DNA of 63,746 nucleotides, filler included, from Licmophora abbreviata (taxonomy: Eukaryota), in assembly GCA_900291995.1 (NCBI GenBank). It is 18 parts of 18 records of this genome, joined end to end, with 100 filler letters (N's around TTAATTAATTAA, not from the genome) between each part and the next. Parts side by side here need not be neighbours in the genome. Positions count along the whole stretch, not along the records: positions 33,125 to 40,284 come from OLMU01001627.1; 17 more parts are not named here. The stretch is one strand, 5' to 3'. The notes beneath the pieces are model-generated. The model made no database searches and was not told the DNA's origin. It saw nothing but the letters and a program-made list of their open reading frames with translations. Below are positions 17,028 to 63,746 of the stretch, one piece after another. Position 1 is the first letter of the stretch, and each line of letters opens with the position of its first letter. A program made the position numbers and the translations under genes.

Positions 17028-18464
17028 CTATCGCTTGCGTTTTCCAAAGAATCCGCCACTTTTCTTCTTAGCATCGGCGGGAACCTTCTTCTTGGGCTTG
17101 GTAGGGTTCGACTTGACTGTGAAGAAGCTGTCCATACGGGACTGCGGCTTTACGTTGGCCTTGTGAGCCTTTTGGAGTTTCTCGATGCTAGACTTGACGC
17201 GTTCCGCGCTGAAACCCATTTCGTCGACAAGGAACGTGGTCAAAGCTTCTGGCTGACATGCCGTCCACTTGAGGTCTACCTGGTCCTTGGTCAACACTTC
17301 GTGTTCGTTGAACAAACGACGGGCCCTGACGAAAATAGGCTCAGTCTCCTCCTCGTCCTGTTCGTCGCCGTCTGACTTCTTTTCTTCCTCCTTGCCTTCG
17401 TCCTCAGTGTTGTACTCGTCCTCTTCTTTCTTGGCCTTCTTTTTTGCGCGAACTTCGGCGGGAACCCACTCATCCGGCACCGTGTACTTGTCGCGATCCA
17501 AATGTTGCAGGATGGTCTCAATGCTACCGTGCTGCTTGATGAGTTTGAGCGCCGTCTTAGGCCCGACACCACGAATCGAGTCGCAATAATCACATCCCAG
17601 CAGAATACACAAGTCGACAAACTGATCATGAGTAACTTCGAGTCCTTCAAGCGCCTTGCTGTAGTTCATGGTCTGGACGGTCGCTTGCTTGGCACTCGCA
17701 AACGTCATTTTGCGGACCAACACAGGCGTCTGAAAGGTCAATGCATCCATATCTTCCGTTCCCGTGGCGTAGACCAATCCTTGCTTTGCAAGACTGGCCG
17801 CTTGCGCCTCCGCTTCACAAGGTGCCAGAACAATCGGCACTCCCATTAGCTTTAATAGCTTCTTGCAGTCTTCGTTTTCCTTTTGCCCGGCACGCACGAG
17901 TCGTTTGGAGTGTTTGTCTTGTTCTTCGACATTCCCCTCTTCCTGTGCCTGTTTCAAAGCTTCTTGAGCCTTGACCCGTTTCTCCCGTCGCTTGGTGAGT
18001 TCGCCGCTCTTGATGGTGGGCGGTTTTCCATCAAAGACAAAGACTGGACGAATGCCTTCCGTCATGAATCGAATCGTTCTGTTGAACATGCCTTGAATGT
18101 GGGAGGTCGTCTCACCTTCCGCGTTGGTGAGAACGACCGCGGCTTGATTGCCGCCTCCCGATCGCACGGCAATGAGAAATTGGTAAATGGCCATGCTGGC
18201 ATCAATGGCAATTTTGCGTCCCTGTAGACTACTCAAGGGAACATCGCGGATGCACTAGAGGGCCATGATGAACGAATTACGCAATTTTTACATCAAAATG
18301 AGAAAGATGAGCAAAGAGAACAACGACACAGACGAATCATAGAGTTCAATCCCCCCAAAACTTCTTGCAGCCAAGCGACACTTAGACTTGAGTCTTTTCG
18401 TTTCTACACCACTTACATCGGGAGCTTCATCAGACAGGAGCTTGGCTAGACCTTTGATACCCAT
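17028..18464 (-). CDS. FEN1: Flap endonuclease 1
   Basis: Exon 1 (18464-18417) reads MGIKGLAKLLSDEAPD; intron 18416-18255. Then GRKIAIDASMAIYQFL, VFDGKPP, APCEAEAQ, TEDMDALTF, LLGCDYC, GVGPKTA and the PIP box QSRMDSFF. Confidence 0.97.
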
Positions 18465-29643: not shown

Positions 29644-31767
29644 ATGAGCAGCAGCGATGATCCGAAAAACCAAGTTTCCCTCTCCAACACTCCTCGTGAG
29701 TCATCGACAGCAGAAGGAAAGGTCACGGCGAAGCAGCAGGATTTGGAAGCTCGACAGGAAGAGCTCGACGAGGAAATGCTACAGGTACTGTGAAACATAT
29801 CTGAAGTGGTGAAACTTCACTGTGTATCCTACTCTAGTACACTGGAACTACTACTACCACCGAAACGAAGAGTCACTCACGCACTCCTTGCTTCGTCTCT
29901 CTCACACACAGGCCAAGGAAGTCTTTCAATCTCTCTTTAGTACACGCAAGCCCAAAGATGGCTGGGCCGGTCTTTCGAGCGGCTTGAAGAGTGTTGGCAA
30001 GGGCACTGCGGCGGGCCTTGCATCCTTGGTGGCGCAACCCATTGCGGGGGCGCAAGAGGGTGGCGCCAAGGGATTCTTTGCGGGCCTGGCGACGGGCGTG
30101 GCGTCGGTACGTCCGGCTTGGTTTACTTTATATACTATACTATACAACAGCAATCACACACTCACTGTTTTATGTTTGTTGTCCCTCTTGGCGGTTTGCA
30201 GGCTGTCGCGCTCCCAGTCACTGGTATTTGCGTCGGCGCCTACCAAGTCGGACGGGGTGTTGCAAACTCAGCCGAGGCCGTACGGAACTCTCGTCAGGGC
30301 ATGGTGTGGGATCAAGAAGCGCGAGAGTGGACCTATTACTACCTGGATCGAGAAAACAATGATGTCTATCGGACGGAACAAGAAAAGATATTGAAACAGA
30401 AGGAAAGTGGTTTGGATGGACCGGAACGGGTCGTCAAGGATCGAGAGTACTATGAACTCTTGAGTGTATCTACGAATGCATCGCAAGCGGACATCAAAAA
30501 GGCGTACTACAAGGAGGCTCGCAAGGTCCATCCCGACAAGAATCCAGACGATCCGACGGCTGCGCAAAAGTTTCAACAGCTCGGTCATGCCTATCAAATT
30601 CTCTCCAACGAAGAAACGCGTGCGAGGTACGACAAGAATGGAAAGCCGGAAACGACTGCCGAAGAGGAAATATCCGAGATTGATCCCTATGTCTTCTTTG
30701 CCGTCATGTTTGGATCGCATCTCGTGGAACCCTACATTGGAGAATTGTGGATTGCCAATACCGCCGATTCCTTCATGAAAGATGCTGCCGATCAGCACTT
30801 TGCGGATATCGGTGATGGACAAGTCCGACCGGGAGACGATGATGACGACGGACCAGACGGCGAGGGAACGAAGATGGATGAAATGCAGCGGAGGTCGGAA
30901 GAACAGGCAGAAGAAGCGCGCTTCAAGCAGCGCAAGCGGGAAGTCAAGTGTGCCTTGAACATTCGCGATCGCATTGCTCCGTACGTGGACGGGACGCAGG
31001 ATGCGACGACCTTTACGGCGTCATGCCAAGAGGAGGCTATGAATATTGTCAAGGGATCGTTTGGTGAAACCTTCTGTACCACGATTGGGTTTCAGCTGGA
31101 GGTGGAAGCCGAACAGTTCTTGGGTTTCCAAACTTCCTTTTTGGGTACGCAGGGTCATGCCGCTCAAGCACGTATGCGGGCCAGCGCATTTCGCAACAAC
31201 ATGAAGATCGCCGGTGCCGCCATTTCTGCAGCGCGTGCTGGGAACAAGGCATACAAGGAATTCGAGTCGGTGCAACGGAGTATGAAGGAAAAGAAGGAAG
31301 CCGAAGGGCGCGAGGGGGGTCTGACCGAGGAAGATTTGGATCCGGACCAGGCAGCCATGGCGGCAGCGCAAGTGGAAGCGGCGCTTCCGGCGGTACTGCA
31401 GTTTGCATGGGCCATTAATGTGCGGGATATTTCTCGCACTCTCAAGGTGGTATGCCGAAAGCTGTTTTCGGATGCAGGCGTGGAGATGGAGACTCGTGTG
31501 AAGAGGGCCGAGGCGGTCCAAATTCTGGGACGAGAGTTCCTCGCCATTGGCAAGATGCACGGCGGGATGAACCAACAGGTCGACAGCAAGGATATCATGG
31601 CGCGCGCGAATGCTGCCGGGATGGCAACCATGGCCAAGGCGCAAGGGCAAGATATTTCCGCCGACGATACGGAAGAGCTGATTCGACAAGCAAAGAACAT
31701 GTCTTCGGCGCAAGGTGAGGCGAGTGCGACAAATGCTGATGGAAATCAGAAGGCCTCCGCACCCTAG
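29644..31767 (+). CDS. DnaJ protein with C-terminal DnaJ-X domain
   Basis: Exons 29644-29784, 29912-30106 and 30202-31767 join in frame. J domain EYYELLSV...KKAYYKEARKVHPDKNPDDP...AYQILSNEETRARYD, then DPYVFFAVMFGS...YIGEL and WAINVRDISRTLKVVC...RVKRAEAVQILG. Confidence 0.9.
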
Positions 31768-32234: not shown

Positions 32235-34898
32235 ATGACGCCGTCCCACCTCCTTTCGATGCTCCTAGTCACCGCAGCACTTCTTCTGCCGGGACAAGTC
32301 GCTGCGCAGAGCTGCACTCTCTGCGGAGACGGCAACTCTCCCCCTAATCCAGGGGTCTCAGTTTCGGACTCTACCCTTGACGAATACGGCGCAGAGACTT
32401 GCGGCGAGCTCGCAGCCCTTCCTGAGATTCGTGCCTTGAACTTTGGAGACTGCGACCAACTTAGGGCTCTGGTGGGCGTCGGCGAGTGCGCCTGTGTTCC
32501 AAGCGAAGACGTATGTACAGTCTGTCCTGACCGATCCTTCGTTCCCAATCCTGACATCATCCTGGATGATCGGGGGACGAATTGTCGTGATCTTGCGGTG
32601 GTGGCAGCCCTGGACTCGAACTTTGGCGGCGCCGATGCCTGTGCCGACTATCATCTCGCCGGGTTTGCCTGTGGGTGCCCCCTTCCCGATTTCGACAGCC
32701 CTTGCTCGCTGTGTCAGGGTGGAGACGCCTCCCCTGCTCCTCTCGCGACGACTAGTGACGGAAATACTACATGCATTGCGCTTGAACAAGTTCTTCCGTA
32801 CTTACAAGCGGAAAGCGGCATTTGTACGTTGAGTCAGATCGATGGAGCCTTCTTCTGCGGCTGTCCGCCGCCTATTGAAGGTATTTGTGCTACCTGCCCT
32901 GATGGGTCTCTTGTCGACCCTGACATAGTCTTGGAAGAATCGGTTGATTTCAATGTCACTTGCTTGGATGTCGCTTACTTTTACAACAGTTTGGGCGACC
33001 CGGACGACGACTGCTCCTTCTTCTNNNNNNNNNNNNNNNNNNNNNNNNNNNNNNNNNNNNNNNNNNNNTTAATTAATTAANNNNNNNNNNNNNNNNNNNN
33101 NNNNNNNNNNNNNNNNNNNNNNNNCGACCCGGACGACGACTGCTCCTTCTTCTACCTGGAAACAGCTTCGCGATGTGGATGTCCTCCGGCGGTGCCCGGC
33201 GAGACTAGCTGTGATCTCTGTCCAGACGGAGACGTGAGCGATCCGAACATTGTCGTGGAAGAGCTGGACCCAGAGCAAACGTGCGGCGAAGTGGACGCGC
33301 TCATTGTGAATACTCCGCCCCAGTCCGACGCTTGTCGGTTCCTGCAGTCTGCTGCTGGTGTTCCATGTGGATGTCCCATTGCAGATGTAGGATGTACGAT
33401 TTGTCCCGACGGATCAAGCTTGCCCGATCCATCGATAAGCATTGGAGACGACTTGACATGTCGCGATGTACAGGTCACGGCCAATGCTGATGCCAGCGAC
33501 GAGTGCGATCTCTTTCACTTGAACGCGTTCACTTGTCAGTGCCCAGCCATCGAAGGAGGGTGTACGCTCTGTCAGGACGGCAGTGCTCCTACTTTACCGG
33601 ATCTCGAGATAGGGTTTCAATACACATGCCAGGATCTGCTGAATGACGCAGCCTTCATCGCTGCGGACTCGGAGCTCTGCGAAAGCCTCCAGTTCACAGG
33701 CTCGACTAGCTGCGGATGCACTCCCCTGAATGGCCCGTGCAAAGTCTGCGCCGACGGATCTGACGTACCTGATCCAGGATTCGTCATTGATGACGAAGGA
33801 ACAACGTGTGGAGCCATTCAATCCTTACTGTCGTTTGAAGAGGAGGGCGCATGCACCGATGCAGAGTATGCGGGCGCCCTGTGCGGATGTCCGCCGTTGG
33901 CGAATGGTGGTTGCTCCGCGTGCTTCGAAGGTGCCAGTTTCACGGGCGTCCCACAGGGCGGTGATGGGGATAATACCGAACTGTGTATGATGCAGGACGA
34001 GCTTCTTGGTGCAATTAGCGGCGACTCGGACATTTGCGCTGCCTTTCAGGGTGCAGCCTTCTTTGAGTGCGGATGCCCCGATTTGCCCCCGATACGCGAA
34101 AACTCCCTGTGCACACTTTGTCCCAACGGGGAGGCCCCGGAGTTTCTCGATTTTTCCTTCCCCGGCTCGACGGCTACATGCGAAGATTACTACGTCGCTG
34201 CGACATTGTTGACGGAGGAGGTGGACTGTTTCGATCTGCAGGAAACTGTTGCCGCTTTGTGTGGCTGTCCAGGTGTCTCACTCCCGAATCCTTGTACCGC
34301 GTGTGAGGGCGGATCTCCGATCCCTAATCCCAGTCTGGAGCTCATCCCCGGCATGACCTGTGAGGATTTCATTCCGATTGTACTCTTGGAGGGTCAGGAT
34401 CCCGACGCTTGTACGAGTTACCAAGCCACGGTCGGGGTGTACTGCGGGTGCGACAACCCCTTGGCAAGTGAGGGAGCCTGCCGCATTTGCCGCGGAACCA
34501 ATCTACTTTCCGACGCCACTCGACTTCTCGGTGATGGCACAAACGTAACATGTGGACAGGTCGAGTTCGAAACGTACGAGGGGGACTGCGGCGCAGCCCA
34601 ATCTCTGTACTTTGACACATGCTGCGACACAGAGGCTCCGACGCTGACTCCGAGCATGACTCCTTCTGTAGCCCCATCGGAGCTGCCTTCCGCCGAACCC
34701 TCCTCTGCTCCAAGCACTGAGCCCTCCGCTGTTTCAAGCACCGAACCCTCCATTGCGTCGAACGCATCGCCTGTTGCTGAGCCCGCGACCGAGCCACCTT
34801 CGTCGGCCAGTAGTGGCGCACTTGCGATGGTCGATGATGGTCCCTTCCTCGTAGTACTTGGATTGGCCTTTATGTCGACTCTTGTGTGTGGTCTTTAG
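32235..34898 (+). CDS. Secreted/surface Cys-rich repeat protein (CxxCPDG...TC...CGC units), ~844 aa, with a hydrophobic C-terminus
   Basis: Signal peptide MTPSHLLSMLLVTAALLLPGQVAA, many ~55-60 aa Cys repeats, a PS/TE stalk and a hydrophobic tail. A 29-bp overlap on each side of the spacer at 33025 joins the two ORFs in frame. Confidence 0.85.
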
Positions 34899-35053
34899 GT
34901 CTTGTGCTGTGCCGATTGTTTGCGAAAGGAAATGTAGCTGTCGCATCGAGCTAGTCACGAGGCAACTACTAGATTACTCACTGTCAATCTCTAAATGTCC
35001 TTGTTAGCATAACGCGATTCCTAGTTAGCTCGCGCAGGTCGCACTTAAGATTT

Positions 35054-38000
35054 TTAGACGAGTTCCACCATGTCCACGCCGGGAGGAAGCTCAACACGCG
35101 GGGGAAGTTCTGCGAGTGATGTCGATGGCTGAATCTCATCGCTTGGCCAGACAAAGATGCGCGACGCTGGTGCCCCTTGCCACACACTGTCCGCTTCTAT
35201 AACCTCTCCTGTCATGGCCAAACTCTTTTCCAACAACATCGATCCGGCTTCCATATGCACTCCCTGTTGTATGCGTGAACGGGAGCGCAGGGTCGAGTGA
35301 TCTTCGATGACGATCTTAGCCAATTCAAAGTTCCCTCGTGTGTTTAAGTGGCAAACTATCGATGAACAGTCCATCACACACCGATCTCCAATTGTGACCA
35401 AATCTGGTTCTGGCATGTATGGATCGCCGCCAGTGGGGTATAGGCAGCAGTCCTTTCCGATCTTTGTGCCATTCCATCGAAAGTACTGAGTCATGAATGG
35501 CGTCCCGCAGATGAAATCAAGAATGTTGAAACGATTTAGTTTGCGAAGCTTCCCGATGATCTGATACATTTCCCAACGCTGTGCATACGCAGATGAGTCA
35601 TAATTGTAGCGACCTTCTTGTCGTTGTCCCATGATTCCCCACTTGACCGCCAAGTCGATGCCCAGCCAGGCAACAACTCTCAGAAGGTGGGTGACGAAGA
35701 AAGAGTTCAAGATCGCAGCGTACACCGTCAAGAACGAGTACTGGACCTCGTCGAAGTCCCGATACGCATTCGGAAACCCGTATAACAACGCTGCGGCACC
35801 ATGTACGGCGCCGAGAATTGGCAGCGTATGGAACGCAGCAATAAAAGACTGAGTGACCCATGTGAGAAGTACAATAGCGCTCAGCGGCAAAACAAAGTAA
35901 GAGGCCTCGCGATTGTAAAACGCTCTTCCGAATGGGCGAAGCGTCGACTCGTCTCCTGTCATAGGTAGATCCTTGGGCTTAGCATCCGCGGACCGCAGAG
36001 CCCCCTCGAAGTTTGTCTTCGCTCCCTTTTCAAGGCAAACGGGCTGGCATCCTTTCGAACCAAACCATACGCTACCTTCGGTCAAGTGCCAGCCCTCGGG
36101 ACAGACAGAGTTGGATCCAAGAACCGCATTCTTCCCTAGAGTACTCCCAGGTAAAACGACGCAATTGTCTGAGACGTTCGACCCCGCGCAAAGTACAACT
36201 TTCTCGCAGGAGTCTATGGTCGCGCAAAAGATCGAGGAGCGAGAGCCGAACACAACGTCATCGCCTATCTCGAGCAGCTCAAATTCTCCCGAGAAAACTG
36301 GCTGATTTCCGGGCCAGAAAACTCGTTTTCCGACTTTTGCGCCCAGCAGACGGTATAGACAGCTGACCAATTCGTAGTGTCGGCCCAATAAGTCGGCAAC
36401 TTCCTGCATATTCTGCCGAGAAAACAGTGTTGCCGAAAGCCAATGGCGAAGTAGTTGCCATTCAGACCTAGTGTCTCGTGGTCCCGGCTGGAATTTGCCA
36501 ATCACGCACCATTTGACCAAGATGGCAAGCGCCATATACACTAAAGGCGACAGGATTGACTTTGCAAGTCGAATTCCAATATAGAAAGGAATGCGTCTTA
36601 CATCGCAAAGCCATCGAAGCAGGTCACTTGTATCATCGAAGCTCTTGTCCTCGTCCCAAACTTCTCGCAGCATCCAGAGAACGACTAACAGAGCCGGAAC
36701 ATATGAGATTGCATCGACTGCAAAAGTTATAGGAGCACCGAACAAGAGTTGCGTGAAGAGAGTTGGCTCTGGGATCATTCTGCGGTTGACACGAGCATGT
36801 TTCACGTCCAGGCTTGGTCCCACTTCGTAGCTCGACGTGACAGGTCCGAGATGACCGTCGTCTGGGATCGACGTAAAGGGCGCGACAACGGATCTTGCAC
36901 CGACACTGGCATTGTTGCCGACAGACACCGGCCCTAAGATCATGCATCCATTATCGACGCCAAAACCGCGTACCGTCGAGTACTCAATGGCTGCCGAGTG
37001 ACCAATGTTTACCAAGTCAAACTCAGCCACATCCGCTTCGAGGCTTATCCGTGCACCAGAACCCACTTTTGCCCCAAGCAGACGATAGTAAATGTTAAGG
37101 AACATTTCGTTCGAGCCCCAGATGCCACGTCCCAATAGCTTTCGGCATACGTCTACGAACCACCAACGAAGGTAATAGCTGCCCCATAACGGATACCGGC
37201 CTGCTCGGTATCGACCAATCACAACCCACTTGATGGAAATGAAGATCAAGGGCGTCACGGTTACCCATATGAGATGGTAGGCCAGCAAAACCAAAATGAA
37301 GTGAGCCAAATTGTGCTCCCCAGGGGTCCGTTTCGACGTTACCAGTAGAAACGAGAAGAAAAGAAAGAACCGTGACACTTGCCAGATGGGAAACACGACA
37401 AATAATGGAACGAGCTGAAACACGGAGCCCAGGAACGACCCTTCTGGTGCCCATCGCGTTGCGGTGAAGGGGGTACCTGTCAGGTCGATATCCTTTTGAT
37501 GGAAGGTAGAGCCTGTCACGCTCGACATCGCAGCGATACTTCCCTCTGGTCCCGGAGACACGCAATCTCGGCGTGACGGCATTGATGACTGAAGAGACAG
37601 AAGTCCTCCCATTTCCATTGCTTCCTTCTCTCGTTCTTGGATTAGGCTTGCCATGGCAATGCAAGTAGAATGATGGAACACTTCCGCTCCACTAAAAAGC
37701 ACACCGTGTCGCTTTCGAATGCGGCTCGCCAATTGTGAGGCAAGCATGGAACTTCCACCCAAATTGAAGAAGCTGGTCTCCGGTGCCGGCAGGCAGTCCA
37801 GGTCCAGTAAGTCAAGGAACAGCTGCTGTAGGTCTTGCACAAGAGGGTCATCATGACAGCCACCGCCGCCGTTCTTTTTCGCCTCGGCTTGTTGCAGAAT
37901 GTGTCCGATAGCATCGCTAGGTTTCGGGTGCGTCAAATCAAGGTCCGACCGGATGGGGTTCTTAGCCTGCACAAAGTGCGAAGGCACTGCGTAGCGGTGC

Positions 38001-40269
38001 AAGATTTCTCTCGCGACATGAACCGCGTGGTCCAGTTCTACCTCGAATACATGACAGACCAACGCACCGAGTCGACTTGGGTGTGTCACGACGACCAGCT
38101 GCTGGCCCGAATCTATCAGCAATGCACGGCAAAGTTGTTCCTGGACTTCAATTGGAGACACCGTCACCTGTTCGCTGGGAATCGATACATGGATTGGCGT
38201 TCCCTGTCTTGGGCATCTAGCGTGGAAGGTTCGTTCGATCGGATACATGGTATCATTCAGCTCCGGCAGACCAAGTCGATGGCCTAGTTTGACTCTCAAT
38301 AACTTGTTTGTGTGACTCTTGGGCAACGCATCCATAAAGACCAGACACTGTGGCCACTTTGGATTGGCAAGCTTGCTAGCCAAGAACTCGTGCAAGGTGT
38401 GCAGATCGATCCGCGGTCGATCCGAGTGCTGCACAACCACAATGCCGACAACTTCCTGTAAGACGTTGTGGAGGGCCGAAAAGGCAGCGCATGTTTTAAC
38501 GTCCGGATGACTGACGACCGCCTCTTCGACCTCCATGGGACTAATAATTTCGCCTCCACGGTTGATGACCTCCTTCGAACGGCCAGTAATGTATAAATAG
38601 CCTTCTTCGTCCATGTATCCCAAGTCGCCAGTGTTGAACCAGCCTCCTTCCAGAAAAGTCTCGTCCTGAGCTGCGCTCGGCTCCAAAGCATTCTTTCCGT
38701 ACCCTCGAAAGCACGGCGCGCCCCGAACACAAATGGGTCCTTCCGTCCCGTGTGGTAGTGGCTGGAGCGTTGTTGTGTTCAAAATACAAACTTGCGGTCC
38801 CACCGCGACCCCCGATGTGCCTGGCTTTTCCAAGTTGTAGTGCGCGGGTGGACTGGATATCGGCATACACTCTGTCATTCCATAGCTCGGCAATATATTT
38901 GCCTGGAAGGCATCGCGGAGCTGTCGCGCCAGAGATGGCAATAGACCACCCGCAGCGTTCGCAATCATACGTAGTGGAGGAACCTCAGTCAAGTGCTCTG
39001 GCTTGCTCTGTAGAATCAATTGATGCATTGTCGGTGCAGCATAGTACCAGGTGAAGCTCTTATTACCCTTCTCCAATAGATCCCAAAAGATATCTGGATC
39101 AAAGGCAGGGCAGCAAATGACGCAACCGCCGGACAAGACCGGAGAAAAGACTTGGCGTACGATACCTCCCACGTGAAAGAGCGGCATTAAGTTGCAGTTG
39201 ATGTCAGAGGACGTGAGATTCCAACTGAGACTGATAATAGCAGCAGCAACCATAATATCGCCGAGGCAGTGAGGAACAATCTTTTTGCTTCCCGTCGTCC
39301 CCGAAGTAAACAAGAGCAGTACAGCGTCGTCGTGAGAATTGGCCAAGAATCGGTCGAACCGTGCCAAGCGATCCTCCGATTTCAGATGTTGTGAATCAAG
39401 GCGACTGAGATAACTTCCGGCCCCGACATCTGCCTCGGCGTCGGTCCTACTGCTATTTGGTACACTCGGACTTTGAGCGGGACGTGACGCTACAGGCGAT
39501 CGTGGCGGAGAAAGCGAACGTGGCTTGCCGTTTTGATTGCTCACACTGTCGTCGTCATCAGCGTTGTGGCTGTTGGTTTTGCTCGATTCGACAAGTTCGA
39601 AAATACCAGCCTCGGTTTCGCTCGGAACAAGTCCAACAAAGGGTAAGTTGAGTTGATCTGCCAAGTCTTGAATATGCTCAAATCCTGAATTTCCTGCGCC
39701 GCCAAAGCTAGTTCCAGGGGCTGGCCCGAAAATGACATGGGCCTCGCACCGTTGAATGTCCGCCTTGAGTTCGCTCAGCGCGCCATTGGCGTTGAGAGGG
39801 ACGCAGGTAGCCCAATTGGCGATGGAGAGAATGCTCAAGGCCAGCTCCGGTCCATTCGGAAGAACCACGGCGACTACAAGTAATTTAGTGCAAAGGAACA
39901 AAGCAAAGTTGAGATTGACCTTCGGTCCAGCGCGGCACTCTTTCTCGTACACATTGCCCCTCTTTTACTGTCTGATCCCAACTTACTTTTGTGTCCCTTT
40001 CCGAAACCCAAATGATGAAGAGCGGGCCCAAAGTCCCTGAGAACAAAGTCTCGAATACGATCATGAGTAATGCTACTGCGCCCATCGATACTTCCCAAAG
40101 CCTGGCGATCACTGTGCAGCAAGGCAGCACAGAGACTGGGAAAGAGCGGCAAAATCGTCCGTGCTACCTCCTCGCCGTCGATGGCACCAGAAGGCTGAAG
40201 CAAATGGCGACAGGACGTCAGTAGCGGCGAAGAGTCGTCAGCTTGAACAAGCGCCATGTTTGTCAACAT
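35054..40269 (-). CDS. NRPS-like membrane synthetase: adenylation domain + carrier domain + three TM/beta-helix terminal repeats (Pls/PosA-type architecture), ~1700 aa
   Basis: Exon 40269-39987, intron 39986-39874, exon 39873-35054; the junction reads HKIAVVLPNGPE. Adenylation motifs FTSGTTGSKK, SYGMTE, FNTGDLG, GRSKEVINRGGE and LPKSHTNK. Carrier motif FFNLGGSSML. Three KWxxxG...YRLLGAKVG...ExDLxxIG repeats ending in WQGAPA. Confidence 0.9.
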
Positions 40270-40384
40270 GGACGACGACTCTCANNNNNNNNNNNNNNNN
40301 NNNNNNNNNNNNNNNNNNNNNNNNNNNNTTAATTAATTAANNNNNNNNNNNNNNNNNNNNNNNNNNNNNNNNNNNNNNNNNNNN

Positions 40385-44832: not shown

Positions 44833-47800
44833 TTACATCTCCGTACTACTTGTACTCGAATATCGATTCGCACGGAGCCGACGCACCGCTCCCGATACCG
44901 TAAAGCTTATTGTCAGGCCTCCAAGCATATTACCGCTTGCTCCAGCTTCATCATAGCCAAGGGCAGAGAGCATGTATAGCCCATTCGGTGGGGTGCTCCA
45001 CTTGGCGTAGTCTCCGCCAGAATCACCTGCGATTGCGAATGGCGCGAAGGACTCGACGTTTACGATCTTTCCATTTAGTACGAAAAGTATACTCCCAATT
45101 GTCCCCACCGTATCTGCTCGAATGTTAACATTCGGAGTCATTGACAAGTCGATAGTGTCTCCCCAAGAAAGGACTGTGATGTCTGTGTCCGTTTCGGAAT
45201 CAACTAACGTGAAAGCTGTGATGGAGGGTTCGATGGCCGTGTCCTCAGTCGGTGACGGCGTTGGCTGTACTGTTGGCCTTGAAGTAGGGGGTGTCGTATC
45301 TTCGGTAGGAGACGGCGTTCGTTGTATTGTTGGACTTGTAGTAGGAGATGCCGTATCCGTAGGTACGGTTGGATGTAGTGTAACATCAACAGTAGGTACA
45401 CGAGTCGGTGCTGAAGAAGGTTGCTCAGTTGGAGAAGACGTTAATGCAGAAGTGGTGGGCTGCATAGTCGCACTAGCAGTAGGCGTGGTCGTCGGCTCTA
45501 TTGTAGGTTGGCCAGTAGGAGAGGAAGTATCTTCGTACTTGGATGGCTTCCCAGTCGCTTCAACAGTAGGTGAGTGCGTCGGCACTGTTGTTGGCCACAA
45601 AGTAGGAGCTGGTGTCTCATTTTGCAGCTCGGTTGGCGAGAGAGTCGTCTCCGCAGATGGTGACAAAGTGCTCGCTGTCGGCTCGGGAGTTGGTTCGAGG
45701 GTCGGCACGGAGCTCGGCTCCGGAGTGTCCAGTTCGGTTCTCACTTGGACAATGGTCATCTGGATCGATAAACTATTTCCAGGATTGCTCTCTCCATCGT
45801 AAACTATAGCAGTGAGTGTGTGAGTGCCCAGACTTTTGGGGTACCACTGATTGTAGTTTCCACTGTAATCTCCAGCCAACGCGTAGGGCGGGAAACTCTC
45901 TTGCCACTGCAGAATGCCATCAATCATGAATACAACACTACCGATGTCGCCTGCTGTATTGGCACGTATGTTTATCTTTGGTGTCTCGTTCAACACAATC
46001 ATGGTACCGTCCGTCAGTGTAAAAATGTCAAGGTTCGTCGCTGAGTTCACCAAAGTAAAACTGGTAACGGATGGGCCATTCGTTGTAGGCGATGACGTCG
46101 GATCAGTCGTAGGAGCGACCGTGAGTTGGAATGTCGGTTCCAGCGTAGGCGCCACCGTCGTTGGTCTGAAGGTTGATTGTACAGTTGGCGTTGCGCTAGG
46201 CAATTCAGTTGACCTATCAAAGTCGGTTGTGTGCTGAATTCTATGGTCGGAGACACGGTGGGAAGATGTGTCGGTTGAGCTGAAGGGTAGACGGTCGGTG
46301 GCAGTTGAAATCCGTTGGGATCTGTCGGAGGTTGCACAGTTGGTACCGGCGTAAGCGCAATGGTTGGAAAGTCAGTTGGTCCCGGTGTAGGCTGTCCAGT
46401 TGGCGTCAAGGTCAATTCGGATGTCGGCAGTGCACTTGGGTCTAAAGTCGAACCAAGCGATGCTTGTGTCGAAGGTTGAGCAGTTGGGGGCAACTGCCAT
46501 CCATTTGGGTCTGTTGGTGGTTGCAGCGTCGGCTCCGGCGTTTGCGGGATAGAGGGAACCTGCGTCGGTGTGGGTGACTGCGGCTCACTTGGTTCCGGTG
46601 TTGGCAATGTAGATGGCGTCGGAGTCTCCAGTGGAGTCGGGTCTGGCGTCGGCTCTTCAGTGGGCGTCGCGGTTGAAGGTCGCTCCACAATGTCTAGGCC
46701 AATTGAAAGGCTTCTGCCCTGGAGTCCGTTCCCATCGTAAATTGTTGCCTTTAGCTCCTGTGTACCCAGCTTGAATTCCCAGTCATAAAAGTCTCCATTG
46801 GCGTCACCCCCAATTGCGTAGGGCGCGTAACTCTCAGTTCTAACCAAAATCCCATCAATGTAGAATTGTACGCTCCCGATAGCGCCCTGAGTATTGGCCA
46901 CGATGTTGATCTTTTCCTCTTGGTTCAATACCGCGACCTCGGCTCCATCCAGCAGATCCACAATGTTGCTGTTCGTCGCAGAGTCCACTAAAGTGAAACC
47001 AACAATTGATGGCTCCGCAACAGTAGGTTGCTCCGTCGGATCATCGACTAGTGGCACGAGACTTGGTCTGCTTGTGATTATTGACTCGGAACTCGGAGCT
47101 TGGCTGGGGGGCAAACTTGGTTGCTCCTCCATCAATGTGCTTACGGCCCGTGCAGTTCGTTCCCCCACGATGAGCATCGATGCCGGGTCATAGTGGTAGA
47201 AACACATCAAGTCGTCCGTTTTTACAAACTCACACTCCCCGTCGCTCAAACAGAAAGCCTCTTGAGCTGCCACGACTAGCTTTCCCTCTACACTGCCGCT
47301 CCTCCAGCAACCAATGCCAATGATAACGACAGGGATATCTGATGCTTGTTCGTGAGTCCCCGCAGGATTTGCGCGGAAAATTTCGCCACGGACGCTGTTG
47401 ATAAAGGACGCCAAGTTGGTCTCATAGTTCTCAGGATCTCCTTGACTGAAAGTGTCTTGTGAACCCTGGAACCAGACAAAGGCTTCAATTGGACAATCTC
47501 CAGTTCTACAGTTGGAATGAATGGATTCCATATCCTCGATGCGGTCGAAAAGTGCCTTCCAGTGAACGTCAGTCTGATCTGACCACTCGGCAAGAGTGGT
47601 TCCACCGGATGCTACCTTTGCCATCCCATAAGTTTCACTACCGAGTACATTGTTCAAAGTGTGAGCCATCATGAGTTCGACTCCATATGGCGATCCGCAT
47701 CCGGCATCCGGATTGACCTTGTCCGCGGTAGTCAAACTCCCGGTGAAGGCGTAGGTCGCTGGATGATCCATAGTACAAACGACTTCATCGACGGGATTCA

Positions 47801-48158
47801 GAATGTTGGAGTAGATTTCTCCATCATCGATGGCTAGTAATGAATCGACTTCAAAGGCAGCGACTGCGTCGTCGACAATGAATTCGACGGGGTCGTTAGG
47901 CACTTTCTTGCATTCTTCAATCAAGTCGGCCCGTCGCGATTTAGAGTTCCCAACAAGGATTTCAACCAAGCTCTGTAAAGACTGTCCCGGTGCATTTTCT
48001 GGATGGCTATTGGTATATCGAATCCCAGCCTCGCTTGGATTGCCCACCATGTTAGACTGCCCCGCCATGAGAAGCCACGGCATCCGTGCATTTACACTGT
48101 GGGGCGTGAAACATAGAGCCAAAGTGAGAGCCCAAAAGGGGTAGAGTAACCTGGTCAT
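44833..48158 (-). CDS. Secreted SGNH esterase (SASA / carbohydrate esterase family 6-like) with three Ig-like modules and Pro/Thr linkers; one frameshift near 46225 as assembled
   Basis: Signal peptide, LLMAGQSNMVG, KVASGGTTL and FVWFQG. Three ~100-aa FTLV(D/N)S.T...INI.ANT.G.IGS...ES..P(Y/F)A..GD..G modules separated by PT repeats. Confidence 0.82.
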
Positions 48159-49049
48159 GGTGAGATAGAAGCGATTTCCTCATCAGAATGAGCTTGTCAT
48201 GTGTTCCATTCGAGACTCATCCCAGTCATCGCGGCTCATTCACGAAACACGCATCGGCATATTTTCCGCCATGGGCATATCCATGATGGCGCGAGTCACA
48301 GTTTGAAACGCGAGTATCTAAACAAAAGGGTAGTTTGGGTCGAGGGAGTCGAATCGAGTCAAGGGGCGCGCAGGAAAGTTGCCGTCCGTCCGTCCCCNNN
48401 NNNNNNNNNNNNNNNNNNNNNNNNNNNNNNNNNNNNNNNNNTTAATTAATTAANNNNNNNNNNNNNNNNNNNNNNNNNNNNNNNNNNNNNNNNNNNNTTT
48501 ACTTAACGAAACGTGTTATTCCTTGCACCCTGACTTACGGTACGATAGTAGTATGTAGCTGACTTCGGTTATGAGCGCTCCGTAGGGGCCCTTCTCCCAC
48601 GGAGCGATGGACAGGTGACGGCTTTGAGGCGCAGCGCGCGGCCGGGTCATCGAGTCACGAATGAATCGAAGGTGATGGCGACGCGAGACGCGAGCTCGCC
48701 GAAACGCGGGATCGCATCAACAGCACAATGACGGCTCGGAGATCTGATCGACGACGAAGGCGTAGAGGCGACTCTCTGTCGATCTCTTTCACAATCGTTC
48801 TCACTGGACCATCCTTGATTTGTGTACAGACTTAACTTTCTAATTTCCTTTTTATTGGAGCTCATTTGGTCAAAGCTTCGTGAAATCCCGTTTTTCAGAC
48901 TTTGAATTCTGTTAACTTTCAGCTTGGAGACCTTCACGACGACAGACATCATCATTCTGTCACCACTGCTTTCTTCTTCCTCGTCTTCGCCGTCCGGTTT
49001 GACGTATCGTCCTAGGAGTTCCTTGCACACTCCCCGTCAAGACCGCAGT

Positions 49050-55954: not shown

Positions 55955-57639
55955 CTAAAAGTCCAATCCTTCGTACTTGAACTCGTCATGATAAATGTTG
56001 GTAAAGGCTCGCACTAGCTCCACACCGCCTTCTTCTCCAGCAGTAATCGTAGCACGCGTCTTGCTCGAACAAAAGGCCGCATGTCCAAACGAGACGGGTA
56101 GAGAACACACGTCCGCTTGCGACAGCACGGCCGTTCCCTTCAGACACAGGAATACAGACGGCGACATGAGTTCGCAGACTTCGTACGTATCGCCCGCTGG
56201 GACGCGAATCACTTCGACGCAAAAGTCGGGTACGGGCGGTTCGTAGCGAGTCGTGCATGCGTCCGTAGCTACGCCGGTGCTGAATTCCGGCACGCAGGAC
56301 TTGTAGGTCAACATGTCCACTAGAGTCGACACGTCCTTCAACTTTGGTGTGAGTCCGGCGCGTACGACATTGTCGCTGCACGCCATGCACTCGACGAGCT
56401 CGCCACTAATGTAGGCATGCGGTTCGTTGGCTCCTATAAACAAGGCCTCGCCCTTCTTCAACGTCACCACGTTGAACATCAAGGGCGCAATGATTCCCGA
56501 GTCACCAGGAAACTGTTCCGACAGTTGTACCATGAGCGTGTCGAGGGGAGTTGGAGTATCCATACCCTTCACACGAGTCAAGAGAATGTCCAACTGAGCG
56601 CGCACCACGTCGTCGTCACACTCCAAGTACGTATGAAACATGCGCTGCAGTACCGCTCGCGTCGCCGGCGAGTGCACCATGCGCTGCACGTCCTCCGCAC
56701 AGTCCGTGCCCAGAATGGCTCCGAACTCTGGATACTGTTGCAGATGCTCGACGATCTCTGCAATGGGTCGGAATCCACACATGGCTTGCATTTCGTCCGA
56801 GATGCAAATGGCCATTTCAGGCTTGTGGTTGGGGTCCTTGTAAATGTGAGGACGTTCGGCATGAAGTTTCTCGGCCAATTTCTTATCGGGATGTGCCTGA
56901 ATGGAAAGAACCTTTTGGATGCTCAGTACCTTCAGCAAGAAGGTCAAATCGGTATCCTCGGCCCTTCCACAGTGCTGCTCAGGATCCTGTTGCACATAGT
57001 CCAAGAGCCGTGTCGTCGTCGTAGTACTGCTGCCGTTGCGTGCACTACTATCAGTGTTCGTCTCCGTCGTTGTCGAGACACGCGACATGCCACTGGGATG
57101 CGTGCCCAGCCAAAGTTCTGCGTACGGACTTTCGTCGTCCACGCAAAAGTCGTCATCGCCTTCCAGTTCCGCTTGCGCCGCCTTCATGCGAGCCACCGTC
57201 GACGTCTGACCGCGACGGCCCCATGCGTACTGCTGTGCTGCACAGTGGAGCGGCTGTGTATCAAATGATGCAATGACGGGAGGTGGAGTAGAAGTGTAGA
57301 GACAGAGGGAGGGGTGAAGCTGTGAGAAAGACTGACCATCTGTACATGTTCACAGAGAGACGACAAGCCATTCTCGTCGGTCATTGCTCATCCCTCTCGG
57401 TGTACGAGCAAGTACACGTCACGTAGCTTTCTACTCACACGAAGCTGGTTTGCCATCGTCACGGGCACAGCGCACTGTGTGAGCTCATTTTCGCGTTCCG
57501 TGAGCTTTGCAAGAGTCTCGCGAGACAGGTTGCGAGTCATGGACGGTGTTCGGGCATCGTTGGTGTCCTTGAGAGGTTCCAGGACTTCCGGAAACTCGCC
57601 CACCATGGTCGTCATGGTGTTGGCGCGATTCGGGGGCAT
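55955..57639 (-). CDS. MPI: Mannose-6-phosphate isomerase (type I)
   Basis: Exon 57639-57439, intron 57438-57254, then PLHCAAQQYAWG, PYAELWLGTHPS, LSIQAHPDK, YKDPNHKPEM, EPHAYISG, ECMACSDNVVRAGLTPK and YEPPVPDF. Confidence 0.95.
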
Positions 57640-62043: not shown

Positions 62044-63746
62044 CTAATAACAACTGTAGCACAGCGGGGTAATCGGGTCGACACCCAAACCAGTATTCGG
62101 ATCGTCCTGCTCTGGACAGGCTGAATTTATAAACGTTGCGTTTGTATACCTGATGGGCACGTGGCTCCGCATCCTGGGTCCCCACTCGCAGAGATTCTGA
62201 TTGAACTTTCTGGCTTCGCGAAACACGTCTCTCATGTTGGTCACCTTCGAAACATTCCACACTGCAATTGGTTGATTGAACTCGTACGCCGATTGGAACA
62301 TATCTCTCAGGCTTCGCACCTGCCATGTGTTCCATTTCCCTATGGGCTGGTTAAACTTAACGGCGCTGTTGAACATATTTCGGAAGTAACCGCAGTTCGA
62401 GGTGTTCCAGTCTCCAATTGGCTGATTGAATGCCCTAGCGACCCAGAACATATTTCTCATATCGTATACCTTGGAGGTATCCCAGCCACCAATCGGTTGG
62501 TTGAATCTAGATGCTTGTTGGAACATTCCGATCATGTCATATACATTTGAGACATCCCAGTCTCCAATAGGACTGTTGAATTTGTTTGCGCCAAGAAACA
62601 TTCCATTCATATTGGTAACCTTCGACACGTCCCAGACGCCTATTGGTTGATTGAATGAAGTTGTCAGGTAAAACATTTTGTTCATGTTGGTAACTCCGGA
62701 GACATCCCAGCCTGAAATATCTTCATTGAAGCTTCGCATGTTGAACAGCAGATAGCTGAAGTCTGTAATTCGAAAGCACCACGTCTCAATCGGTCCATAC
62801 ACAGACTTTACGCCTTGGTCCTGATAGTTTCCTACTGCGAAGTCGAGGAATGCGCGGTCCTCGAAACATTGGTAGGGCCCAGAAATCGGTATCTGATCTG
62901 GTAGAGCTGGCGATGGTTTGGTGCTTGGGGATGACGACGGGCTGGCGGTTAGAATAATGGTCGGTGCCGTCGGACGAGGGGAAGGAGGGCTCGTTGGAGG
63001 AGGTGTCGGGGCTGGACTCGGCATTGGCGTTAGTTCCGGCGTAGGGGCTGGACTTGGCACTGACGTTGGTTCCGGCGATGGGGACGGCGTAGGGGCTGGA
63101 GTTGGTGCCGGCGTAGGGGCAGGATTCGGCAGGCGGGTTGGGGCCGGTGTAGGGGCTGGAGTTGGCGCTGGCGTTGGGAACGGTGAAGGGGCTGGGCTGG
63201 AGCTGGAGCTGGTGTAGGGGCAGGATTCGGCACGCGAGTTGGAGCCGGTGTAGGGGCTGGAGTTGGGGCTGTTGTAGGAACCGCAGTTGGTGCTGGAGTT
63301 TGTGCCGGTGTAGGAACCGCAGTTGGTGCTGGAGTTAGTGCCGGTGTAGGGGCCGGTGTAGGGGCCGGAGTTGGGGCTACAGTTGGTGCGGGTGTAGGGG
63401 CTGGTAACGGTAAAGGAGCGAAAGTCGGGGAAAGACTGACGGGTACCGGCTTCTTCGTCTGAACAACAGGAGCCAAGGTGGGCCCATCACACGCACCAGG
63501 GCAGTATCGTATGAAGCGAACCCCGATTGAGCTTGTAGCGGACACAGTAACGCTCCCCACATTGGTCTCGTCGGAAAAGGTTTCGTCTTGAACAGAATTG
63601 TTTCCGAGACCCATAATGGCCTGGACTGTCTTGTCGCCCCCCTTCAGAATCTCAAAGGAGTTTTTGTCCGACTCATGAACATCAATCAAGCCGATGCCCA
63701 GCAATCTCTCTGCTGGGCATGTGAAAGAGAAAGTGAAGCGTCCCCC
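62044..63746 (-). CDS. DUF285 (BspA-like) surface repeat protein with a PAPT stalk; 5' end outside the window; one frameshift near 63195 as assembled
   Basis: YGPIETWC, then ~7 units of 25 aa (FNQPIGxWDVSKVTNMxxMF), preceded by long PAPT repeats that continue across the frame change. Confidence 0.88.

Follow-up and report, generated by a model that had tools for sequence, protein, structure and literature searches.

The locus studied here raises the question of what a Pls-type membrane synthetase makes when a different kind of loading domain is attached to it. The gene lies on the minus strand at 35054..40269 of a 63,746-nucleotide (nt) stretch of DNA from Licmophora abbreviata (NCBI GenBank assembly GCA_900291995.1), hereafter the window, and a preliminary description had proposed that it encodes a synthetase of the Pls/PosA family, which makes amino-acid homopolymers. 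To our knowledge, Pls-type synthetases are the only known enzymes that polymerise by means of one carrier module and a beta-helix domain embedded in the membrane, and all of the characterised ones make cationic poly-amino acids. We found that the adenylation domain of this protein is of the acyl-CoA-ligase type, unlike the amino-acid type of the Pls/PosA-type enzymes checked. We therefore consider it fairly probable that the protein is a membrane enzyme that depends on its carrier, either an acyltransferase or a synthetase, and uses a carboxylic acid other than an alpha-amino acid.

The two exons of the gene join into 5103 nt that encode 1700 amino acids (aa) with one stop, which is terminal. 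A Pfam scan of this protein revealed matches to AMP-binding (E 1.5e-41), AMP-binding_C, PP-binding (E 2.4e-9) and Hexapep, and no condensation (C) or thioesterase (TE) family at E<=0.01. The overall order is an adenylation (A) domain, a carrier (T) domain, and three units that each consist of two hydrophobic helices and a left-handed beta-helix, as follows.

38699..39871, minus strand: N-terminal part of the adenylation domain (Pfam AMP-binding)
38303..38533, minus strand: C-terminal adenylation subdomain (AMP-binding_C), with the conserved Lys618 (38303-38305)
37832..38284, minus strand: conserved segment between the A and T domains, residues 625-775
37646..37834, minus strand: carrier (PP-binding) domain, with Ser803 in LGGSS as the predicted phosphopantetheine site
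36782..37459, minus strand: unit 1, with hydrophobic helix pair 904-940/948-983, KW..IG motif, helices and left-handed beta-helix
35927..36781, minus strand: unit 2, with hydrophobic helix pair 1132-1167/1193-1223 and the beta-helix that bears the Pfam Hexapep match
35117..35926, minus strand: unit 3, with hydrophobic helix pair 1417-1458/1474-1509, beta-helix, His1603 and the WQGAPA end

This layout agrees with what had first been described, namely one protein of ~1700 aa with a full adenylation domain, a carrier motif FFNLGGSSML, three tandem units of hydrophobic helices and beta-helix, and no condensation or thioesterase domain. The carrier motif lies at 37742-37771, with the codon of Ser803 at 37748-37750, and this Ser is conserved in 50/50 aligned rows. 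The three units were recovered by a hydropathy scan, which gave six hydrophobic segments in three pairs, by AlphaFold2 and by fold matches. After each helix pair come a KW..IG motif, then Y(Y/F)R..G.K(V/I)G, then a segment of beta-helix, and WQGAPA stands at residue 1659. In the adenylation domain, we found an SGTTG P-loop at residue 285, the gate residue His328 (39173-39175) and Val329. Its N-terminal part also holds a low-complexity insert rich in Ser, Pro and Asp (~39100-39270, minus strand; residues ~202-255), which is modelled with a predicted local distance difference test (pLDDT) score <50 and differs in length between diatom homologues. The segment between the A and T domains carries the family motif R.FEA.CPP.GT and is mostly a small alpha/beta domain in the model (mean pLDDT of 10-residue blocks 85-98). 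It has no Pfam match even at E<=10, and the fold search of the A-T model, dominated by the adenylation domain, barely probed it.

The C-terminal half is, by sequence comparison, homologous to the terminal domain of Pls and PosA. The NCBIfam family TIGR02353 matched it in 3 stretches at E 6.1e-68 with 229.8 bits, below the curated cut-off of 423.1. A C-terminal half that fails to match this domain had been named as a possible refutation of the family assignment; homology was found, yet at a sub-cut-off score. For comparison, 27 of the 401 sampled Pseudomonadota genomes have a TIGR02353 match above the cut-off (506-945 bits), mostly over profile positions 1-695 and in frames of 1303-1480 aa.

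Residues 885-1700 (816 aa) were modelled by AlphaFold2 from 53 aligned sequences, with a mean pLDDT of 91.5 and a predicted template modelling score (pTM) of 0.91. In the model, a pair of long helices, some short helices and a beta-helix occur three times over, and the three units are mutually homologous (BLASTP E 6e-10, 9e-8 and 5e-4). A sequence search of the Protein Data Bank (PDB) with the C-terminal half found no solved structure at E<=0.001, and in a Foldseek search with its model no solved chain spanned more than one beta-helix unit (query TM-score <=0.15). Unit 3 alone gave only weak matches to gamma-carbonic anhydrases and hexapeptide transferases in the PDB (best E 6.6e-4), while the Pfam Hexapep match reached 34.5 bits against a cut-off of 27. 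At the level of fold, Foldseek and VIA-align matched single units to serine, maltose and galactoside acetyltransferases with Z 10-13. Unit 2 resembles serine acetyltransferase (Z 13.0, root-mean-square deviation (rmsd) 2.1, 112 residues), and unit 3 resembles a nearly full chain of maltose O-acetyltransferase (Z 11.5, 149/188 residues), with galactoside O-acetyltransferase at ~11.

An alignment of this half, with 44 rows of the protein's clade and 11 Pls/PosA-type rows, contains one His that is invariant in 55/55 rows. This residue, His1603 (35348-35350), lies in unit 3 within the motif HLNTRG, and units 1 and 2 have no His at the same position. Glu1583 is found in 44/44 clade rows, and the 11 Pls/PosA-type rows have 9 Glu and 2 Asp there. 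Several invariant positions (His, Glu/Asp, Trp, Gly) are common to both groups. We infer a single active site per chain, with His1603 as the putative general base by analogy with the hexapeptide acyltransferase superfamily, of which a catalytic His is characteristic.

The adenylation domain gave a different picture. Its best NCBIfam families are FadD7 and long-chain or other acyl-CoA ligases, whereas the amino-acid adenylation model TIGR01733 (cut-off 317.4) is outside the 25 best families, all of which score >=121.9 bits. Four Pls/PosA-type bacterial proteins score 286-429 bits on TIGR01733. The best PDB sequences in a phmmer search are oxalyl-CoA synthetases (6qjz, 1e-59; 5ie0, 1.4e-59; Pcs60 8aff, 1.5e-52), and domains of nonribosomal peptide synthetases (NRPS) are much weaker (1.4e-24). 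The AlphaFold2 model of residues 96-884 (pLDDT 82.0) also has oxalyl-CoA synthetases as its best folds in VIA-align (Z 35.4-35.8, 28-32% identity), with an rmsd of 2.5 over 434 residues in the superposition on 6qjz; 4-coumarate and malonyl-CoA ligases come next. At the A4 motif, 6/6 Pls/PosA-type rows have Asp followed by an acidic residue four positions on. The diatom rows read His-Val-Gly-Gly, with Val for Asp in 11/11 of them (Val329 in the present protein), and the later acidic residue is absent. An alpha-amino-acid homopolymer is unlikely as the product, because TIGR01733 is outside the best families and the A4 Asp is replaced by Val. This part of the preliminary description is not supported, while its other suggestion, an acylated surface compound, is compatible with these results.

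We also compared the predicted pocket with that of the oxalate enzymes. Ser289 and His319 of Arabidopsis AAE3 (AtAAE3) contact oxalate and are described as conserved only among oxalyl-CoA synthetases (PMC8905533). Their equivalents here are Ala402 and Pro432, and both are replaced in 11/11 diatom and 5/5 bacterial rows. At three further pocket positions, this protein has a smaller residue than its oxalate-using relatives (H->G, C->A, A->G). Since the pocket set is near-constant across the clade rows (11/11 diatom, 5/5 bacterial and ~26/28 other rows), the alignment suggests one conserved substrate class, which would be larger and less polar than oxalate.

To place the protein among its relatives, we used searches from both the whole protein and its C-terminal part. 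The full-length search gave 744 matches, and the best 120 of these have 48-68% identity. Twelve of the best 120 carry an organism name, and 12/12 are diatoms: Seminavis, Mayamaea, Nitzschia, Stephanodiscus, Cylindrotheca, Epithemia, a Bacillariaceae metagenome-assembled genome (MAG) and the JGI 'Psemu1' model. Several of the best 120 are complete MMETSP transcripts. The gene is ordinary within diatoms, as its orthologues are already in public data, and, belonging to a large conserved clade, it is not a diatom oddity. At 33-40% identity over the full length, we found the chytrids Polychytrium and Nowakowskiella, Halteromyces, Trametes, Geopyxis, Ophiocordyceps, Zopfia and the diplonemid Artemidia, as well as one MMETSP transcript. 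Starting from the Zopfia protein, a further search traced the family through Ascomycota, among them Aspergillus, Penicillium, Fusarium, Trichoderma and Colletotrichum. The fungal and bacterial homologues bear only generic names, such as hypothetical, 'acetyl-CoA synthetase-like', 'putative peroxisomal-coenzyme A synthetase' and 'NRPS-like'. The C-terminal 816 aa, searched against 1.84 billion representatives, gave 2576 matches at E<=1e-3 and 403 at E<=1e-30.

Bacterial members are few. A prokaryotic pattern scan found six loci with 32-35% identity, in 3 Novosphingobium, 2 Myxococcota MAGs and 1 partial Dormiibacterota contig. We checked 2 bacterial and 2 fungal members, and all have a FadD7-like adenylation domain and a TIGR02353 score of 150-209 bits, below the cut-off. 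A profile built for the clade separates the two groups: members score 446-1138 bits in one piece and Pls/PosA-type proteins 34-113 bits in pieces. The 1700-aa protein itself has one match with 1138.5 bits, and contains the clade's adenylation motifs ...PLFH[VI]GG... and ...YGMTECMP....

The tree was built by the quick method of IQ-TREE from 55 rows and 759 columns, with SH-aLRT support, and has several long branches. Its 44 clade rows comprise 11 diatom, 5 bacterial and 28 other rows. The 11 Pls/PosA-type rows split from these 44 with support 100. Support is 100 for the monophyly of the 11 diatom rows and 99 for the grouping of the 5 bacterial homologues. All diatom rows, together with all 10 rows whose source is known to be eukaryotic, belong to a 38-row group (98); the source was sought for 20 of the 28 other rows. 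As a sequence-based assignment, the protein is a member of a separate sister clade to Pls/PosA, which spans diatoms and other protists, many fungi and a few bacteria, and not a strict Pls/PosA member; we do not file it there because it fails the curated score and the tests for an amino-acid adenylation domain. The family claim first made for this locus holds for the layout and the terminal-domain homology, but not for the score or the type of A domain. The phylogeny relates the protein to fungal and bacterial homologues and separates it from the Pls/PosA-type rows. In the same tree, the Pseudomonadota proteins L031 (G194) and L032 (G329) are long branches; they have an amino-acid-type A domain and TIGR02353 scores below the cut-off (135.6; 365-368 bits), and the Pls/PosA family has its own divergent fringes.

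We next set the protein against four known systems. Like Pls (Streptomyces albulus, epsilon-poly-L-lysine) and PosA (Acinetobacter baumannii, delta-poly-L-ornithine), it has a single A-T module without C or TE domains, the invariant His of unit 3, and a homologous terminal domain (E 6e-68). It also shares with them a C-terminal domain of ~730-810 aa with three membrane-helix pairs and three similar beta-helix units that are predicted to pack as a single domain, as described in the PosA and Pls literature (PMC10522769, PMC8506220). Unlike them, it scores below the cut-off on TIGR02353, has an acyl-CoA-ligase A domain with Val for the amino-binding Asp, and falls in a separate clade; the diatom protein also exceeds them in length by 200-400 aa and has an additional folded segment that separates A from T.

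The oxalyl-CoA synthetases AAE3 (Arabidopsis, 5ie0-5ie3), LsOCS (6qjz) and yeast Pcs60 (8aff) are closest to the A domain in both sequence and fold, and the gate His, the Val, the Met-Thr-Glu and the catalytic Lys are kept. However, those enzymes are described as free soluble CoA ligases of ~55-60 kDa (PMC8905533), whereas the A domain here shares one chain of 1700 aa with a carrier and a fused membrane domain of ~810 aa. Their oxalate-contact Ser and His are Ala and Pro in this protein, and the three other pocket changes are all towards smaller residues.

The hexapeptide-repeat acyltransferases share the beta-helix fold of units 2 and 3, the presence of three beta-helices per enzyme, and a His that is a candidate general base here. 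They are soluble homotrimers with three active sites, in contrast to the three diverged units in one chain, the six anchoring helices and the His in one unit of the present protein. LpxA and LpxD are hexapeptide-repeat acyltransferases that take their acyl group from a phosphopantetheine carrier, the acyl carrier protein (acyl-ACP).

The full architecture is found in the fungal and bacterial homologues (Penicillium rubens Pc12g09980, Fusarium verticillioides FVEG_05723, Trichoderma virens, Trametes elegans, Novosphingobium and Myxococcota MAGs). These have the same A-domain pocket residues and a similarly sub-cut-off TIGR02353 score at 32-40% identity, and are orthologues or paralogues in other lineages.

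A literature search found no paper on this clade, on its diatom member or on a characterised algal orthologue, and no mention of four fungal locus tags of clade members; this is in line with the earlier statement that no characterised algal example was known. PtNRPS1 (A-T-R1-R2), a known diatom NRPS-like enzyme, is a different gene as described (PMC13194791). Another diatom NRPS-like gene from the literature, A-ACP-reductase-KR, is a different gene too. The PosA paper reports homologues in fungi, Amoebozoa, Metazoa and Alveolata, all with amino-acid-type specificity codes, and its main text does not mention stramenopiles (PMC10522769).

How the enzyme may work can be outlined from these observations. 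The A domain would adenylate a carboxylic acid other than the standard alpha-amino acids, probably one of larger size and lower polarity than oxalate. The acid would then be loaded as a thioester on the phosphopantetheine arm of Ser803, the predicted site; the carrier is supported by its PP-binding match, by the conserved Ser and by a phosphopantetheinyl transferase (PPTase) gene beside two Novosphingobium homologues. The three beta-helices may pack like a hexapeptide acyltransferase trimer, held at the cytosolic face of the membrane by the six helices. Because the helices come in pairs, all three beta-helices should lie on the side of the A and T domains, and since both ATP and the PPTase are required on this side, it should be the cytosolic one. 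In the published model of the PosA domain, six bent helices accompany three left-handed beta-helices, which pack in the manner of sugar-nucleotide acyltransferases (PMC10522769). Both this model and the pTM of the whole 816-aa domain are compatible with a pseudo-trimer. At the single site, His1603 would activate a hydroxyl or amino nucleophile, which accepts the acyl group. The acceptor could be a membrane-associated or exported molecule, in one transfer, or a monomer or growing chain, in an iterative manner as in Pls. Conservation of all six helices in the two clades suggests a membrane-bound or exported product. In its layout the protein works as Pls/PosA do, and its chemistry is probably similar too.

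Several points weigh against a carrier-dependent acyltransferase or synthetase of this kind. We infer every step past the loading of a carboxylic acid. The nearest characterised relatives of the A domain use oxalate, and the pocket as read from the alignment is compatible with oxalate or a small di-acid. The Pls-type domain is known only as polymerising, and a single transfer to a foreign acceptor is without precedent there. The proposed pseudo-trimer packing rests on the pTM of 0.91 and on the published PosA model (PMC10522769), and the pantetheinylation of Ser803 is predicted from its motif. The tree is a quick-method tree with long branches, and a source is known for only 10/27 of the non-diatom rows in the 38-row group. 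Finally, the intron of the gene, described below, is supported by the reading frame and the homologue alignment, and the read contigs stop short of it.

Among the alternatives, the one that survives best, although we regard it as rather unlikely, is an iterative synthetase that makes a non-peptide homopolymer or oligomer from a hydroxy acid or an omega/beta-amino acid and, in the way proposed for Pls, extrudes the chain either through the six helices or along them. Both clades conserve the Pls-type domain with its His, the retention of six hydrophobic helices is easier to explain by an exported or membrane-bound product, and the pocket is wider and less polar than in oxalyl-CoA synthetases. 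On the other hand, the acyl-CoA-ligase-type pocket bears no sign of a second nucleophile on the substrate, and a candidate monomer is lacking. We know of no such polymer from diatoms or fungi, though no search aimed at one was made.

We consider it improbable that the protein is a true Pls/PosA-type synthetase making a cationic homo-poly-amino acid (poly-lysine, poly-ornithine or similar). The same architecture without C and TE domains, the TIGR02353 match and the invariant His, Glu/Asp, Trp and Gly shared with Pls/PosA-type proteins speak for it, and fungi and some further eukaryotes are reported to have synthetases of this kind (PMC10522769). These features are outweighed by the sub-cut-off score of that match (229.8 against 423.1 bits), by an A domain for which TIGR01733 is not in the best 25, as opposed to 286-429 bits in 4/4 Pls/PosA-type proteins, by the loss of the amino-binding Asp and of the acidic residue four on, and by the position in a separate clade.

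Slightly less probable still is an enzyme for oxalate or a small dicarboxylate, which would activate oxalate or malonate like AAE3/Pcs60 or MatB, with the beta-helix domain handing the acyl group on to an acceptor for oxalyl/malonyl decoration or for detoxification. The oxalyl-CoA synthetases are indeed the best matches by both sequence and fold, with malonyl-CoA synthetases close behind, but the change of the two AtAAE3 contact residues to Ala and Pro in every diatom and bacterial row, together with the three smaller pocket residues, argues against it.

The last question is whether the gene is real. The window is made of 18 contigs of 1.1-10.4 kb each, joined end to end. Because the linkers are artificial, the order and neighbourhood of contigs across them are meaningless, and the genomic context of the synthetase gene is a single truncated neighbour on its own contig. 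The relevant features are these.

17 sites within 10440-61890 (e.g. 40285-40384), no strand: identical artificial 100-nt linkers, N44-TTAATTAATTAA-N44
33125..40284, no strand: gene-bearing contig, with an artificial N44-TTAATTAATTAA-N44 linker on either side
40269..39987, minus strand: exon 1, 283 nt, residues 1-94 and the first base of codon 95
39986..39874, minus strand: intron, 113 nt, GT-AG, phase 1, with a GTAAGT donor at 39986 and a ...TTGTAG acceptor ending at 39874
39873..35054, minus strand: exon 2, 4820 nt, residues 95-1700, with the stop codon at 35054-35056

On the minus strand, we found a stop-to-stop frame of 1636 codons (39964..35054) and a second, upstream frame of 135 codons (40281..39874). 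The start ATG is at 40269, with an in-frame TGA just upstream (40284-40282) and 15 nt of contig left upstream of the ATG. If the intron is retained, the exon-1 frame hits a TAG at the last intron codon, and no Met precedes the conserved core in the long downstream frame; for these reasons the intron is needed. Splicing gives the junction peptide ...GKGHK|IAVVLPNGPE, so that the earlier reading of a 113-nt GT-AG intron that restores KIAVVLPNGPE was upheld. The junction is gap-free in the alignment with 13/14 diatom homologues, and the exception, P0071, is garbled there. The N-terminus of the 1700-aa protein lines up with those of diatom homologues such as P0002; the gene is 5'-complete because its first residues align with the N-terminus of the closest homologue.

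Short contigs of low depth, mostly identical to the gene, were found in 4 runs from 3 studies; 3 of these runs are marine metagenomes, and the fourth, possibly an RNA run, carries a coded organism label. They fall within 35986-39580, and none lies over 39604-40284, where the intron sits. This occurrence suggests that the source organism is a low-abundance member of marine plankton. With a frame of 1636 codons and family E-values down to 6e-68, the intron-containing diatom gene is real and not a chance frame. The need for an intron, the 12/12 named diatoms among the best homologues and the eukaryote-type genes on other contigs of the window bear out the earlier view that the gene is nuclear and not bacterial contamination; it is a eukaryotic nuclear gene, very probably of a diatom. 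A bacterial contaminant, pseudogene or assembly artefact is highly improbable: although the window strings small contigs together by artificial linkers and bacterial homologues exist, the frame requires an intron whose junction homologues support, the 1700-aa reading frame is intact, the nearest relatives are diatoms with up to 68% identity as against 32-35% for bacteria, identical short contigs occur in runs of 3 studies, and the transcriptomes of marine protists contain complete transcripts of homologues.

The contig of the gene also holds a convergent neighbour (33126-34895, plus strand), which is cut by the contig start. In this 590-aa frame, ~9 Cys-rich repeats (C..CPDG...TC...) precede a region rich in Ser and Pro and then a hydrophobic tail; no Pfam family matches it, and it resembles a surface protein. 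Other contigs of the window carry the following eukaryote-type genes, and one further frame.

46050-48179, minus strand: SASA-type carbohydrate esterase
55958-57349, minus strand: type I phosphomannose isomerase
17031-18254, minus strand: XPG/FEN1-type nuclease
29941-31764, plus strand: DnaJ protein with DnaJ-X domain
62047-63486, minus strand: 480-aa frame with a very strong DUF285 match (425.8 bits, 4 stretches)

Around the bacterial homologues, a PPTase gene directly follows the homologue at the Novosphingobium loci L001 (764-12733) and L003 (888-13373), in 2/2 checked of the 3 loci. Both are flanked by TonB-dependent receptor genes, with a PepSY_TM gene at L003 and a ferritin-like gene at L001. 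This neighbourhood looks like iron uptake and is not common to the Myxococcota loci. The Myxococcota neighbours are unrelated, the upstream genes of the Novosphingobium and Myxococcota loci are not homologous, and these neighbourhoods gave no clue to the substrate.

In this study, we found the membrane machine of the Pls-type synthetases coupled to a different kind of loading domain, across a large conserved clade. The C-terminal search gave 403 representative proteins at E<=1e-30; the clade includes many diatoms and common fungi such as Aspergillus, Penicillium, Fusarium and Trichoderma, and joins two known enzyme types in a combination for which we found no prior study. Its product may be a new class of exported polymer or a modification of the membrane or surface. 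As orthologues are present in genetically tractable fungi and diatoms, the function is open to direct test. We put forward only tentatively that the clade is a second functional class of Pls-type membrane synthetases, in which an acyl-CoA-ligase loader serves the synthesis of an exported non-peptide polymer or oligomer, such as a polyester or a polyamide without alpha-amino groups, or the acylation of a cell-surface polymer. If this were true, the diatom product could be an unrecognised component of the organic cell covering.

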